From contig CBDHEC010000008.1 in the NCBI GenBank assembly GCA_965261975.1, forward strand, positions 3,095 through 67,094: 64,000 bases of DNA, written 5' to 3'. The notes under the pieces are model-generated. The model saw nothing but the letters and a program-made list of their open reading frames with translations, did not search any database and was not told the origin of the DNA. The translations under genes and the position numbers were made by a program. Numbering within the stretch: the stretch's first letter is position 1; each line of letters starts with the position of its first letter. Positions 46,430 through 53,197 of the stretch are shown here, one piece after another. Origin of the DNA: Alphaproteobacteria bacterium (lineage in GTDB: Bacteria; Pseudomonadota; Alphaproteobacteria; UBA6615).

Positions 46430-46537
46430 TCTTCGTTCCCGCGAGAACAGGAGTAATTTGCGCCGACCACTCGCCCGGCGCTCGGTTTATTGTCTATGCT
46501 GCGCCCAGCGAGTAACCCGCTCTTGGAGAGAGTGAAC

Positions 46538-47605: not shown

Positions 47606-48549
47606 ACCCGGATCGGCCGGATGACACGGCCGTCCACGAGGATGAGTTCGACATGACCGGCCCGGCGCCGCCGGCGAAATCCCCGGCACCGCTTTTTCAG
47701 GCGGTCGCCTGGATGACGGGCACGCTGCTGTCGTTCACGCTGATGGCCATCGCCGTTCGTGAGCTATCCGGCGAGATCCACAGTTTCGAAATCATGCTGT
47801 TCCGAAGCATCGGCGCGCTGGTGATTTTGATGCCTTTTGCCCTGAAAATGGGTCACGCGATCTGGCGCACGAGCAATCTCAAGCTTCAATTCGGCCGTAA
47901 CTTTGTCCATTTCGCAGCCCAGCTTGGCTGGATAACCGGTATCGGCCTGTTGCCCTTGGCTGAAGTCTTCGCGATCGAGTTCACGGCCCCGATCTGGGCA
48001 ACGATCCTGGCCGTGCTGTTCCTGGGGGAAAAGTTGAACCGTGGCCGGGTCGTCGCGGTGGTCTTCGGATTCATCGGTATTCTGATCATCCTGCGTCCCG
48101 GGGTTGCCGTTATCGACCACGGCACGCTCGCAGTCCTCGGCGCGGCAGTCGGCTTCGCCATGACCCTGTCGATCACGAAGTATATGACCCGCACCGACGC
48201 CCCCATCGCGATCCTGCTCTACATGTCGGTGATCCAGTTGCCGATGGGTATCGCGCTGTCGGCGTTCGTCTGGGTCACACCCGACTGGCTGCAACTGTTC
48301 TGGCTTTTCGTTGTCGGCGCCGTCGGCCTGTCGGCTCACTATTGTACGGCCAAGGCCCTCTCGATCGCAGACCAGACCATCGTGGTGCCGATGGACTTCA
48401 TGCGCCTGCCTCTGATCGTGGCGGTCGGGCTTCTGCTCTACAACGAAACCGCTCAGCTGCCGGTGTTGGTTGGCGCGCTGATAATTTTCGCCGGCAATTA
48501 CTACTCGATCCAGCTCGAGAACAGGCGGCGCAAGGCAAGCGGGAGCTAG
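47602..48549 (+). CDS. DMT-superfamily transporter (EamA-like), second copy
   Basis: 315 aa with 10 TM helices. 4-nt overlap with the Ldh2 gene stop implies an operon. Confidence 0.75.
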   Translation: MNPDRPDDTAVHEDEFDMTGPAPPAKSPAPLFQAVAWMTGTLLSFTLMAIAVRELSGEIHSFEIMLFRSIGALVILMPFALKMGHAIWRTSNLKLQFGRNFVHFAAQLGWITGIGLLPLAEVFAIEFTAPIWATILAVLFLGEKLNRGRVVAVVFGFIGILIILRPGVAVIDHGTLAVLGAAVGFAMTLSITKYMTRTDAPIAILLYMSVIQLPMGIALSAFVWVTPDWLQLFWLFVVGAVGLSAHYCTAKALSIADQTIVVPMDFMRLPLIVAVGLLLYNETAQLPVLVGALIIFAGNYYSIQLENRRRKASGS

Positions 48550-48906
48550 TCAGCGCACGCGGACGACCCGGAATGTTCGCAACACGCCGTCATGTTCCGT
48601 GATCGAGACATATTCGCCTTGAACCAGGATGTGCCGGTCGAGCTTGAACAGCGGTTCGTCCTCATCCGCCGGCTCGTCATCATAGTGGAACGCCCAGCCG
48701 CTGCCGCGATGGACCAGATGTCCATGTTCGTCCGGCTCATTGTGCCAGAAACGGCGCACGGTGCATTTGTCGCGCACGTCGTGCCATTCGCTGCGGTCCA
48801 GATGTCCGTCATCCGTGAGCGGGGCCGCGAATTCGTAGCCACGCTCCACGCTGCCGTCGGGAAAATCATGGTCGCGCCCGAGTTCAAGGCGGATGTGACG
48901 TAAGGT
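48550..48906 (-). CDS. Hypothetical protein (118 aa, acidic, His-rich)
   Basis: Good codon usage. Start MTLRHIRL is internal to the listed ORF. No family recognised. Confidence 0.45.
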   Translation of the reverse strand, partial: TLRHIRLELGRDHDFPDGSVERGYEFAAPLTDDGHLDRSEWHDVRDKCTVRRFWHNEPDEHGHLVHRGSGWAFHYDDEPADEDEPLFKLDRHILVQGEYVSITEHDGVLRTFRVVRVR

Positions 48907-49037
48907 CATCGATCGAAATCCTCCGGGAAATTTCCAAGGGTCGACCGCAAGCCTATGCCGCACGTGACGGCAACGCGTTGACGCACGTCAAGATCGTTGG
49001 GAAAAGTTAGCCGACCCGCCCCGGGCGGCAACAGTCC

Positions 49038-50225
49038 CTAGGCCGCCTCGGCGACGTCTCGCACGGCGTCGATGTCGGGGAAGATGACGTGGTTAGGATT
49101 GGGCAATTCGATCAATCCTTCATCGCGCAAAGCGGTGAAAGTACGGCTGACAGTCTCGATGGTCAGGCCGAGATAATCCGCGATGTCCGTGCGCGACATT
49201 GGTAAATCGATGCTCGCATCCCGGCCCGTCGGGTCCAGATGCTTGTGGCGGTAGAGCAGGAACGACAAAATCTTCTCGCGCGCGGACTTGCGACCGAGCA
49301 GCAGCATCTGCCCCTGCGCAGCGAGCCCATAGAGCACGCGCGAACCCATGATGATCTGTATCAGCGCCCCGTTCACAATTGCCAGCGTTCCTATGAACAC
49401 AATCGGCAGCGGCGATGCGCCGGTGGCGCGGGCATAGATATCGGCCAGGGGTGCGTCGCTCTGCCCAAGCGCTTCACCGGATGCACCCAACAACGCGACC
49501 AGCGACACAACAAAGTAGAGGAACGCGGTAATCAGCAGGGTGAGTATGATCGCCCGCGGCATCGTGCGGCGAACATCGCGCACTTCCTCCGCAACATTCA
49601 CCATGTCCTCAAAACCGATGAAGGCGAAGAATGCCAGAACGGTGCCGGAAGCCAGCAAGGCAAATGCCGGACGCCGCGTGTCGTCGAGGAGCGTGTCGAC
49701 CCAGGCACCGGTTTCCATCAGTCCATCGCGCGCCACCCAAACCACCAGAAGCAGGCCGGCGACCTCGACGGCCGTGATGATCGCGGCGACCATCACCGCC
49801 TCGCGGATTCCCCAGATCGCGATAAAAACCAGACCCGCCAACAAGATCGCCGTGAACACGGGCGCTGGCCAATCGAGCACGAGCCCCAGATAGCCGGTGA
49901 ATCCCTTGGTCAGCACAGCCGACGAGATAACACCCGACGCCGCGACCAGCAGCCCCACCACCACCGACAGGCGGGGCATGCGCAAGCCCTCGCGGACATA
50001 GAGCGCCTCACCCGCCGACCGCGGCATGCGCGTGCTGAGTTCGGCGAAACTCGCGGCGCTCAGCCCGGCGAGGCAGGCCGCAGCCAGAAAACTTAGTGGC
50101 GCGAAGGCGCCCGCGACCTCGATGACCGTGCCGGTCAGCACATAGATACCCGCCCCCACCGTGGTGCCGACGCCGTACATCGTCAGAAGCGGTAGCGTCA
50201 GCACCCGGTTGAGTTGCGGTGTCAT
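49038..50225 (-). CDS. Chimeric ORF: APC-family amino-acid permease N-terminal ~310 aa fused in frame to C-terminal HTH domain (~85 aa) of a Crp/Fnr-family regulator
   Basis: N-terminus has permease TM helices (GVGTTVGAGIYVLTG..., SRVLYGLAAQG). After the junction near 49297-49303 it reads LGRKSAREKILSFLL...MSRTDIADYLGLTIETVSRTFTALRDEGLIE, a typical Crp/Fnr HTH. Confidence 0.65.
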   Translation of the reverse strand: MTPQLNRVLTLPLLTMYGVGTTVGAGIYVLTGTVIEVAGAFAPLSFLAAACLAGLSAASFAELSTRMPRSAGEALYVREGLRMPRLSVVVGLLVAASGVISSAVLTKGFTGYLGLVLDWPAPVFTAILLAGLVFIAIWGIREAVMVAAIITAVEVAGLLLVVWVARDGLMETGAWVDTLLDDTRRPAFALLASGTVLAFFAFIGFEDMVNVAEEVRDVRRTMPRAIILTLLITAFLYFVVSLVALLGASGEALGQSDAPLADIYARATGASPLPIVFIGTLAIVNGALIQIIMGSRVLYGLAAQGQMLLLGRKSAREKILSFLLYRHKHLDPTGRDASIDLPMSRTDIADYLGLTIETVSRTFTALRDEGLIELPNPNHVIFPDIDAVRDVAEAA

Positions 50226-50249
50226 GAGGGTACTTCGGACCTGGTCGAG

Positions 50250-51059
50250 CTAGTGAGACAACAAGGTCGGGACCGTCATGTGTTCGAGGACATTGCGCGT
50301 CACACCGCCAAATGCCAGCTCGCGCACGCGGGAGTGCCCATAGGCCCCCATGACGACAAGGTCGCAACCTTCATCGGTGACCGTATTCAGGACGGCATCT
50401 CCGACCGAGACTTCCTTGGCAGCCACATGCTTGATCTCGGCCTCCACCCCGTGGCGGGCCAGATATGCCCCCAGCCCGACATCCCGATTGTCACCGTCGG
50501 CATTGGCGCGAAAGACGATCACCCGTTCAGCGGCCTGGAGCATTGGAATGGCGTCACGCACGGCGCGCGCGCATTCGCGTTTCGGCGTCCAGGCCAGCAG
50601 AACCGTCTTGCCGATCTGCTCGAAGTTTCCGGCCTCGGGAATCGCCATGATCGGCACGCCGAGTGCCAGGCTGGCCTCGCCGATCAACCAGCTATAGTCG
50701 CCACCGCCATGTTGGGTGAGAACAAACAGGTCGGTTACCGGTGCGATATTCTGAAGACTTTCCACGATATTCTGCGAGCTGCCTTGCCACTCGGCCGACG
50801 CGACACCCGCCGCACGGCAACCATCCTCGAACACGGTGCGGAATTCCTCGGCTTCCTTGTCCGCGTCTTCATAGTAATTGCTCATGACATCGTCCGGCAG
50901 CGGGATCGCGGCATAGACCGGGATGTTCAGCGGCGGAATCAACAGCATGCCGGTCAAATGGGCGTCCTGCGCCGCCGCCAACCGGGCCGCGGCATCCAAC
51001 GTATCGGAATTTCGGGCATCGCCGCGCAACAGACCAACGCAAATGGATCGATAGCTCAT
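50250..51059 (-). CDS. Universal stress protein, tandem UspA domains
   Basis: Two Usp domains (ICVGLLRGDARN..., VLLAWTPKRE...DLVVMGAYGHSRVRELAFGGVTRNVL). Confidence 0.85.
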   Translation of the reverse strand: MSYRSICVGLLRGDARNSDTLDAAARLAAAQDAHLTGMLLIPPLNIPVYAAIPLPDDVMSNYYEDADKEAEEFRTVFEDGCRAAGVASAEWQGSSQNIVESLQNIAPVTDLFVLTQHGGGDYSWLIGEASLALGVPIMAIPEAGNFEQIGKTVLLAWTPKRECARAVRDAIPMLQAAERVIVFRANADGDNRDVGLGAYLARHGVEAEIKHVAAKEVSVGDAVLNTVTDEGCDLVVMGAYGHSRVRELAFGGVTRNVLEHMTVPTLLSH

Positions 51060-51199
51060 TTCGGTCTCCTTCAAATGGTGTTTCCTCACCATCACCCGGA
51101 ACGGCGCGTATTTCATTGATCCTCCTCAAAAGATCCGCCCATGAAAAAGGGCGGCCCCAGGGGCCGCCCTCGATATTCGTCTGACAGATTACGATGCCG

Positions 51200-51778
51200 T
51201 CAGGCGGCATCCACGCCGGCGGTAAACCGCATGCCGCGTTCTTCGAATTGCTCGACCACATTGTCGCCGAAGCCGGACAGTTTCTCCGCGATCGCAGGCG
51301 TGAAGGCGATGTCCGTCATGTCGTGAACGCCGCCGCTTATCACCACCTGCAGGACACCTTCTTCATCACCGATATTGCGGAACGCCCGGCACACGCCCGG
51401 CGGCACGGAGATCGTGTCGAACTCTTCGAGCTCGATGCGCTCGCCGCCGTCGTCGTTCCAGGTCACTTCGAAGCGACCCCGCAGAACCGTGAATGTTTCA
51501 TAGGTTTGCTGATGGTTGTGCAACTCCGGTCCGGTGCCCGGCGGGCACACGGCGTGGGTCATGGTAATGCCCCCGGAGCCCTGGATCGGTGCCCCCTGAT
51601 TGACCGGCGTGTCTTCCGTCCCGCCCAGGCCGATCACCGACAACAGCTCTCGGGCGTAAATGACGTCCTTGGCTTCCTGCGGAATGTCGAGGCTCTCGGC
51701 TGCGCGGAGCGGCTTCAACTCCCGAAAACGGGACACACGGCTCTGCATGTCCTCGGGGGATATCTCGATTGTCTTCAT
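51200..51778 (-). CDS. Cupin-domain protein
   Basis: Cupin motifs HNHQQTYETFTVLRGRFEV and PPGVCRAFRNIGDEEGV. ~190 aa single cupin. Confidence 0.7.
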   Translation of the reverse strand: MKTIEISPEDMQSRVSRFRELKPLRAAESLDIPQEAKDVIYARELLSVIGLGGTEDTPVNQGAPIQGSGGITMTHAVCPPGTGPELHNHQQTYETFTVLRGRFEVTWNDDGGERIELEEFDTISVPPGVCRAFRNIGDEEGVLQVVISGGVHDMTDIAFTPAIAEKLSGFGDNVVEQFEERGMRFTAGVDAA

Positions 51779-51852
51779 CGTGACCTCCATGTCTTTTCGT
51801 TGTTCCGTGAAGTGATTATGGCACGCCTGGGAGCGGGATCGCGACCCGGCAA

Positions 51853-53049
51853 TCAGAAATCCTGTTCGCTCGCGCTGAGCCCCGTGCTGCCGTAAAGCCA
51901 GGCCAGCCGGTCATAGTAATCTTCCACGCCCATCGAGCGCATGATCTCGTTCCGGACCCGGGCGTGCATACCGTCGGGATGAAAGACGAGATCCCCGATC
52001 TCCCGCGAACCGATTTGAACCCGCGCGGTGCGCACCAGTCGCTGGTCCTGATAGGCGATCAGCCCCTCATGGGCATTCGAACGATGGACATCGAGATTGT
52101 GCGCCAGGCACACGGCATCCTCCATCGCCATACACGCTCCCTGCGCGTAGTACTGCATCATCGGATGGGCGGCATCCCCCAACAACGCCACCTGGCCGTC
52201 GACCCAGTTTTCGACCGGTTCCCGATCGCACAACACCCAGAGTCGCCAGTCATTCCCGATCTCGATGATCTGCCGTGCGCTCTCGTTGATATGAGCAAAC
52301 CCACGGCGGACCTCGTCTTTCGACACCGGCTTGCCCGCGACCGGTTCGGGCGCATCATTGTGGTAGGTGACGACGAGGTTGAAATACTTCCAGTCAGACA
52401 AGGGATAGTGGACGATGTGACATTTGGGTCCGGCCCAAAGCGTGGCGGCATTCCAGCGCAATTCCTCGGGCATTTGCGCAAAAGGAATTACCGACCGGTA
52501 GGTCGAGTGCCCCGAAACCCGGGGCTCTCCGTCGCCCACCACGCTGCCGCACAGGTTCGACCAGAGCCCATCCGCGCCGATCAGGACGTCGGCCGCAAAT
52601 TGCTCGCCACCGGCCAGCTGCACTGACACACCTGCGGTTTCGTTGGTGTATCCAACGACCTCGGCGTTAACCCGCAGTTCGATATTCTCTCGCGACCGGC
52701 AGGCATCCAGCAGGACTCCGTGCAGATCCGCCCGGTGGATCACGGCATAGGGGTTCCCGAACCGTTCCCGGAACGGTTCATCGAGCGGTATGTGAATGAT
52801 CTCCTCGCCGCTGACCGCATCCATCAGGCGCAGCATGTCGATGAAAACGGCCTTGTCGCGCGCGGCGGTGCCGACACCGAAATAATCGAGTGCGTGAAAC
52901 GCGTTCGGCCCGAGCTGGATACCGGCCCCGATCTCGCCCAGTTCGGACGCCTTCTCGAGGACGATGACGTCGAAACCCTTGTTGGACAAACCCAATGCCG
53001 CCGACAATCCGCCGATGCCGCCGCCCGCAATTGCGATTGTCTTATTCAC
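51853..53049 (-). CDS. FAD-dependent aromatic-ring monooxygenase (salicylate/3-hydroxybenzoate hydroxylase-like)
   Basis: IAIAGGGIGGLSAA GxGxxG, DVLIGADGLWS, and GDAAHPMMQYYAQGACMAMEDA C-terminal FAD motif. Confidence 0.85.
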   Translation of the reverse strand: MNKTIAIAGGGIGGLSAALGLSNKGFDVIVLEKASELGEIGAGIQLGPNAFHALDYFGVGTAARDKAVFIDMLRLMDAVSGEEIIHIPLDEPFRERFGNPYAVIHRADLHGVLLDACRSRENIELRVNAEVVGYTNETAGVSVQLAGGEQFAADVLIGADGLWSNLCGSVVGDGEPRVSGHSTYRSVIPFAQMPEELRWNAATLWAGPKCHIVHYPLSDWKYFNLVVTYHNDAPEPVAGKPVSKDEVRRGFAHINESARQIIEIGNDWRLWVLCDREPVENWVDGQVALLGDAAHPMMQYYAQGACMAMEDAVCLAHNLDVHRSNAHEGLIAYQDQRLVRTARVQIGSREIGDLVFHPDGMHARVRNEIMRSMGVEDYYDRLAWLYGSTGLSASEQDF

Positions 53050-53123: not shown

Positions 53124-53197
53124 TGGAGCGGGTGAAGGGAATCGAACCCTCGTATGCAGCTTGGGAAGCTGCCGTTCTACCATTGAACTACACCCGC
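53124..53197 (-). tRNA. tRNA-Gly (anticodon CCC)
   Basis: Reverse complement GCGGGTGTAGTTCAATGGTAGAACGGCAGCTTCCCAAGCTGCATACGAGGGTTCGATTCCCTTCACCCGCTCCA folds as a cloverleaf: 7-bp acceptor, GTTC/GAAC D-stem, GCAGC/GCTGC anticodon stem with loop TTCCCAA, T-arm GAGGG/CCCTT, and encoded CCA. Confidence 0.9.

Follow-up and report, generated by a model that had tools for sequence, protein, structure and literature searches.

The 64-kb stretch of DNA analysed here (the window) carries a chimeric open reading frame that is best explained, with a probability of about 0.88, by a recent, lineage-specific, microhomology-mediated deletion of 1,424 bp, which would have inactivated three genes and left an open, most likely non-functional chimera in their place. 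The chimeric ORF lies on the minus strand at 49038–50225, stop codon included, begins with ATG and encodes 395 amino acids, of which 1–306 derive from an APC-family permease and the remainder corresponds to residues 151–239 of an FnrL-like regulator; the switch falls at residue 306/307. The permease-derived part occupies 49308–50225 (minus strand, codons 1–306) and contains TM1–TM8 of the transporter, while the Fnr-derived part occupies 49038–49307 (minus strand, codons 307–395 and the stop codon) and contains the end of the dimerisation helix and a winged helix–turn–helix (HTH). The original prediction described a single 395-aa ORF joining a permease to a Crp/Fnr regulator; both parts are significant by Pfam and NCBIfam, the peptides it quoted are present, and the switch it placed at about 49300 is right to within 10 bases, the AAQGQM codons of the chimera occupying 49322–49305.

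The permease-derived part is recognised by the profiles of its family: AA_permease_2 (PF13520) matches residues 15–307 of the chimera with an E-value of 9e-23 over profile positions 7–308 of 427 (Pfam), and TIGR00909 matches with an E-value of 1e-33 and 117 bits, a score far under its cut-off of 557 bits (NCBIfam). These matches, together with 83–93% identity to the permease orthologs and 92.5% protein identity to the intact ortholog of the closest relative, L002, identify this part as homologous to the APC permeases (TIGR00909 2A0306; GkApcT, 5OQT; MjApcT, 3GIA; plant and mammalian CAT), to whose TM1–TM8 residues 1–306 align. Unlike its orthologs of 407 aa, the chimera has no TM9 onward. Judging by hydropathy peaks and by alignment to solved APC/CAT transporters, the cut falls in a conserved cytoplasmic motif after TM8, which aligns with 'MARDGLLPAFF' of a solved CAT transporter, and the later hydropathy peaks are found in the intact ortholog only, with no counterpart in the chimera. 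Eight TM helices are retained, where a truncated permease of about 7–8 had been proposed, and the 101 aa from TM9 onward, present in every ortholog, are gone; the complete APC core (TM1–TM10 of the 5+5 inverted repeat, in proteins of usually 12 TM helices) is not present in the chimera.

The Fnr-derived part begins at residue 151 of the regulator (MLLLGRK), at the C-terminal end of the dimerisation helix as delimited in CRP/FNR structures, and is 92.9% identical to residues 155–239 of the L002 Fnr protein. Its similarity to Crp-type regulators, on whose significance the original prediction depended, is clear: HTH_Crp_2 (PF13545) matches residues 317–389 of the chimera with an E-value of 3e-16 and Crp (PF00325) residues 341–372 with 8e-16 (Pfam), residues 303–392 match positions 128–214 of 215 of the FixK model with 6e-26, and the FnrL model is also matched over positions 140–233 of 245 (NCBIfam). 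The last 89 aa hold the winged HTH of FnrL/FnrP-type regulators (R. sphaeroides FnrL, RSP0698; D. shibae FnrL) with the recognition motif E--SR (TIETVSRTF), which is the same as in the orthologs, but the sensor domain, Cys ligands and dimerisation helix of FnrL-type regulators are missing, and the cNMP-binding-type sensor domain PF00027 is absent from the chimera in the Pfam search. The intact orthologs share with the FnrL/FnrP type the Cys-x2-Cys-x7-Cys N-terminus and a central Cys; unlike them, the chimera has lost residues 1–150 and is better regarded as a remnant than as a regulator of that family. The N-terminus of APC-family proteins is usually inside, and with eight helices following it the HTH of the chimera should face the cytoplasm. 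This arrangement has a formal likeness to ToxR and CadC, in which a membrane domain is combined with a cytoplasmic DNA-binding domain, but in ToxR and CadC, which belong to conserved families, the DNA-binding domain is N-terminal and there is one TM helix, whereas in the chimera the HTH follows eight TM helices at the C-terminus, and the protein has no homologs of the same architecture and no dimerisation element.

Alignment to related genomes, which had been proposed as a check, found the permease and crp/fnr genes intact and separate, in identical synteny. Five related loci (L001–L005) share the gene order of the window and have a separate permease gene, antisense ORF and Crp/Fnr gene; L001 comes from a 796-kb contig of GCA_039980135.1, and L002 has 88–90% DNA identity to the window. 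The order in the relatives is FAD monooxygenase, cupin, usp (269 aa), permease (407–409 aa), a convergent ORF of 171–180 aa (orf171-180), Crp/Fnr (239 aa), orf119, EamA and Ldh_2, and the window has this order in reverse orientation, with the chimera replacing permease, orf171 and fnr. DNA alignment of the window with the relatives gave two collinear BLAST blocks whose query ends overlap by 11–22 bases (16 in L003–L005, 14 in L001 and 22 in L002), and the window is shorter by exactly 1,424 bp than all five. The missing segment encodes 101 aa of the permease and Fnr residues 1–150 (150 of 239 aa), and it includes orf171-180 in full along with the orf171–fnr intergenic region. A deletion of the permease 3′ end and of the 5′ sensory and dimerisation part of the regulator gene had been predicted and is now sized against the five relatives; the deletion of the whole antisense orf171-180 and the position of the breakpoints in an in-frame microhomology go beyond that prediction. 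The deleted DNA and the protein parts lost with it have no copy elsewhere in the 64-kb window, which rules out a moved copy of the segment inside it, and both flanks are collinear with the relatives across the whole region, without Ns or other discontinuities. Since the intact state is found both in the nearest lineage (L002) and in more distant ones (L001, L003–L005), the polarity, as read from these comparisons, is that of a deletion in the window's lineage.

The wider neighbourhood differs in other respects. A histidine kinase (Tll0287-like, HisKA, HATPase_c) is encoded at L001:13447–14991 between the Ldh_2 and amidase genes, which adjoin directly in the window (about 46430–46490) and in L003, and this is a further presence/absence difference. 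A tRNA-Gly(CCC) at 53124–53197 (minus strand), the sole tRNA or Rfam match in the 64 kb, sits between the FAD monooxygenase gene and an apaG-like gene (DUF525); the same interval is unannotated in the relatives.

The deletion junction occupies 49306–49322 on the minus strand and reads GCTGCGCAGGGGCAGAT, a patch common to both parental genes. The permease copy of the patch reads GCn GCn CAr GGG CAG AT, which encodes AAQGQ followed by I or L; the fnr copy reads GCC GCG CAG GAG CAG ATG, which encodes AAQEQM; and the window reads GCT GCG CAG GGG CAG ATG CTG over 49322–49302. The junction patch equals the crp copy, GCCGCGCAGGAGCAGAT, in 15 of 17 bases, and the crossover lies inside GCAGAT (49306–49311), a run of 6 exact bases. 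Both parental genes read the patch in the same codon phase, and 1424 mod 3 is 2, the value required to put fnr into the permease frame; it is because of this shared phase that the microhomology yielded an in-frame fusion and that the chimeric frame is open. The flanks are collinear, a short direct repeat stands at both breakpoints in the relatives and one copy is left in the window, which points to the signature of a microhomology-mediated deletion. RecA-independent microhomology deletions that give rise to in-frame gene fusions or pseudogenes in bacteria likewise have a short imperfect direct repeat at the breakpoints, one hybrid copy, collinear flanks and a kilobase size; the only oddity in comparison with the usual case is the matching codon phase of the repeat in the two genes, which keeps the frame open.

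The fusion is a one-off among the sequences searched. A protein search covering 5.8 billion protein clusters gave 7,178 hits, and among the best 120, which were examined, only the window's own protein (P0001, a 1-member cluster from one 136-kb contig) has both domain sets. In the same 120, the closest homologs (83–93% identity) are permease-only proteins of 405–425 aa that cover the first 77–78% of the query, and all homologs from 93% down to about 50% identity are full-length permeases. The exact 33-base junction string has no match in the genome representatives of 185,579 species, and junction patterns found no other fusion in these genomes or in 241 million metagenome records. A degenerate back-translated pattern encoding AAQGQMLLLGRK matched three genome loci and two metagenome loci, which were rejected as fusions; they are ordinary Fnr/FixK-type genes that read AAQGQMLLLGRK natively, four of the five being full-length (245–269 aa) with the motif at residue 150–178 and the fifth having its frame cut by the end of the locus. 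These native copies belong to Fnr-type regulators of Brevundimonas (L007, L008), a Geminicoccaceae MAG (L006) and two metagenome contigs (L009, L010), and since they equal the chimeric junction peptide, that peptide alone is no marker of fusion. A genuine, recurrent permease–HTH fusion family, the possibility that would have overturned the original prediction, was rejected, as the same architecture is absent from the independent genomes searched.

The retained parts bear on the age of the event. Compared with L002, the window has a dS of about 0.37–0.58 and a dN/dS of 0.10 in the retained permease part and 0.06 in the HTH part; comparisons of intact orthologs give 0.086 and 0.05, respectively, and the neighbouring usp gives 0.10. 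Because the retained parts have evolved without decay, with dN/dS as in intact orthologs, and because neutral evolution over a modest fraction of the L002 branch would add tens of nonsynonymous changes, the substitution pattern argues for a very recent deletion, the alternatives being a population variant or an artefact. The deletion could be one variant within a population, not fixed, since the relatives are mostly metagenome assemblies and the window contig may be one too. Absent decay is also expected from a sequencing or assembly artefact, or from selection on the chimera.

The regulator that was lost can be characterised from its intact orthologs, which score 210 bits with the FnrL model and 170 bits with the FixK model of NCBIfam, the former being under the FnrL equivalog cut-off of 300 bits; in the L002 ortholog, PF00027 is matched at residues 45–127 with an E-value of 3e-19. 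The intact proteins have the cysteines C16, C19 and C27 plus C114/C115, all within the deleted residues 1–150, and this pattern is that of an FnrL/FnrP-type [4Fe-4S] oxygen sensor. Of the earlier description of the regulator as fnr/fixK-like, the assignment to the Crp/Fnr family stands, and the protein is of FnrL type (an Fe–S oxygen sensor) instead of FixK type. It has been reported that the Fe–S cluster is needed for Fnr dimerisation and for binding to TTGAT-N4-ATCAA (PMC5398030). The other gene that is absent from the window as a whole, orf171-180, lies at L001:9221–9739, L002:2443–2985 and L003:9221–9736, convergent to the permease, whose stop codon it overlaps by 4 bp, and divergent from fnr. 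It matches no Pfam or NCBIfam family; a dN/dS of 0.20–0.32, GC content distributed as in coding DNA and a highly conserved C-terminal end (WSDPGGRVFRLPVEC...TTVVDFRRR) indicate that it is a real gene under purifying selection. Between orf171-180 and fnr, 86.5–87.5 bp before fnr, the relatives have a conserved TTGAs-N4-CTCAA box, with TTGAG in L001 and L002 and TTGAC in L003.

Upstream of the chimera on the minus strand, usp (50250–51059) encodes a 269-aa universal stress protein, which starts with MSYRSI after a GGAG Shine–Dalgarno sequence; the start at 51059 is conserved in all relatives, and the listed ATG at 51116 (288 aa) is over-extended and overlaps the Fnr box. Only the C-terminal Usp domain is significant by Pfam (residues 218–286 of the 288-aa form), and the length suggests a tandem Usp protein. 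The usp stop codon is followed after 24 nt by the ATG of the chimera, and because of this short distance the two are probably co-transcribed. The predicted Fnr box, TTGAGGAGGATCAA on the gene strand, lies at 51116–51129 (minus strand), with its centre 63.5 bp before the ATG of usp; with one mismatch, it is the only match to TTGAT-N4-ATCAA with at most one mismatch in the 64 kb, and it stands at the same position (62.5–63.5 bp from the ATG) in L001, L002 and L003. If centred near −41.5, it would fit a class II-like promoter with a 5′ UTR of about 22 nt, and a sigma-70 consensus scan of 48500–51900 found no promoter, as expected for an activator-dependent promoter. The search for Fnr/FixK boxes before usp and the cupin gene, which had been proposed as a check, thus succeeded for usp, with one mismatch and conservation in the relatives, but not for the cupin gene, upstream of which there is no Fnr box. 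An intrinsic terminator hairpin after the cupin gene (51142–51171, minus strand; an 11-bp GC stem, then UUUUU), conserved in the relatives, stands between that gene and the usp promoter with its Fnr box. FnrL activates uspA (RSP0697) in R. sphaeroides, where this gene lies beside fnrL (RSP0698), both with boxes and bound by FnrL (PMC2908626), much like the box-bearing usp next to fnr at this locus, and FnrL directly activates several usp genes in D. shibae (PMC5398030); together with the conserved box, these reports agree with the view of usp as a typical Fnr/FixK target.

On the other side of the chimera, a second Fnr-core box, TTGACGTGCGTCAA, lies at 48978–48991 (minus strand); this perfectly palindromic box precedes the ATG of orf119 by 75.5 bp, and both L001 and L002 conserve it. 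The core pattern TTGA-N6-TCAA has two matches in the 64-kb window against a chance mean of 0.41, and both flank the remnant; over as much as 17 kb of the relatives, core boxes occur solely upstream of usp, in the divergent region of orf171 and fnr, and upstream of orf119. The conserved boxes before usp, fnr and orf119 suggest that the locus is a compact Fnr regulon. The conserved orf119 (48550–48909, minus strand; the listed ORF is over-extended to 48963) lies downstream of fnr and has a dN/dS of about 0.05; it has no Pfam or NCBIfam match and no PDB sequence match. It probably belongs to the local Fnr regulon and is a candidate low-oxygen-response gene. A hairpin at 48999–49038 (minus strand), directly after the stop codon of the chimera (fnr), is a possible terminator, albeit a weak one (z = −2.2); hairpin calls were based on folding and conservation, and the count of the terminator scan is not above chance (3 found, 2.6 expected). 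In L003 (L003:10735–10800), L004 and L005, orf119, which is at L001:10743–11102 in L001, was lost independently when a deletion of about 320 bp joined its first codons to its last at a 7-bp overlap around CACAT (BLAST), and the Fnr box upstream of the deleted orf119 is degenerate in these three loci, TTGCCGTACGTCAA. The small regulon has thus been struck by erosion a second time.

Among the other explanations of the chimera, the one with most weight is that the contig carries an artefact of assembly or sequencing, or else a minority allele taken as consensus, and that the organism itself still has the permease, orf171 and fnr genes in intact form. In favour of this, the fused protein comes from one contig only and forms a cluster of its own, its lack of decay is what an artefact would also give, and the close relatives are largely from metagenome assemblies; however, the longest exact identity of the two parental sites is 6–7 bp within the 17-bp patch, and since assembler joins need overlaps or k-mers far longer than this, a graph mis-join is unlikely and the junction should be in the reads. 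The unbroken sequence and the collinearity of both flanks also speak against an artefact, as does the comparable orf119 deletion in three assemblies of another lineage, from which it follows that such events do occur at this locus. An artefact or minority allele is therefore considered improbable, with odds of roughly one in a dozen. The reverse history, in which the fused state is ancestral, or arose by rearrangement or horizontal transfer, and the relatives gained the 1.4-kb segment by insertion, has hardly any probability left; it has the formal symmetry of insertion and deletion in its favour, nothing more, while all relatives from 93% to about 50% identity among the best 120 of 7,178 hits have full-length permeases, the intact arrangement occurs in the closest lineage and in distant ones, the parental families are complete elsewhere while the chimera lacks defining parts of each, and an insertion would have had to bring with it precisely those ends that two genes lacked. 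Insertion in the relatives is effectively refuted by the outgroup comparison.

It is also very doubtful, more so than an artefact, that the chimera is a functional new gene, that is, a membrane-anchored, oxygen-insensitive binder of Fnr boxes or a transporter-coupled regulator kept by selection. Its reading frame is open and its dN/dS low, its HTH retains the E--SR motif and should face the cytoplasm, and two Fnr boxes lie nearby as potential targets; but the low dN/dS reflects the history before the deletion, and a singleton fusion without orthologs gives no sign that selection acted on the chimera. Fnr-type DNA binding needs a dimer and dimerisation needs the Fe–S cluster (PMC5398030), and the cluster ligands and most of the helix have been deleted; on the transporter side, TM9–TM10 of the 5+5 fold are missing and the core is incomplete. 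There is an equally slim chance that an expressed chimera acts as a membrane-tethered, oxygen-blind Fnr-box binder, for example at the usp–chimera and orf119 boxes, if the truncated permease self-associates; if true, this would be a newborn regulator caught right after its origin.

The preferred reading, a recent deletion, can be put together as follows. The ancestor would have had usp and the permease gene, a convergent orf171-180 and an fnrL-like oxygen-sensor gene, like the relatives. A single 1,424-bp deletion would then have taken place between two chance copies of the short patch, GCnGCnCArGGGCAGAT in the permease and GCCGCGCAGGAGCAGAT (AAQEQ) in fnr, probably by RecA-independent slippage or illegitimate recombination. 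With the patch in the same phase, it would have produced an in-frame ORF of permease TM1–TM8 followed by the Fnr winged HTH, at the cost of the transporter from TM9 onward, of orf171-180, of the fnr promoter and the Fnr-type box in it, and of Fnr residues 1–150, which include the [4Fe-4S] Cys ligands, the beta-roll of the sensor and the greater part of the dimerisation helix. The product would combine a transporter whose LeuT-fold core is incomplete with a monomeric HTH, and from this domain anatomy the chimera is most likely a non-functional remnant. It lies behind usp in a probable operon with an Fnr-box promoter, and its expression probably depended on the very regulator that was destroyed, unless the genome has another Fnr paralog. 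In this account the comparisons show the deletion itself, with its size and breakpoints, and that the fusion is unique, while the mechanism, the loss of function, the operon and the dependence on Fnr are inferences.

For annotation, this means that the ORF is to be treated as a fusion pseudogene, neither a transporter nor a transcription factor. The event is of an ordinary kind, gene loss, and opens no long-standing question, and it provides a clean example of an in-phase microhomology giving an open chimeric frame. For the organism, it would mean the very recent loss, in its lineage, of the local FnrL-type oxygen sensor together with a permease and a gene without a family match, and the independent orf119 deletion in a sister lineage hints at an erosion of the low-oxygen response module in this group of Alphaproteobacteria.
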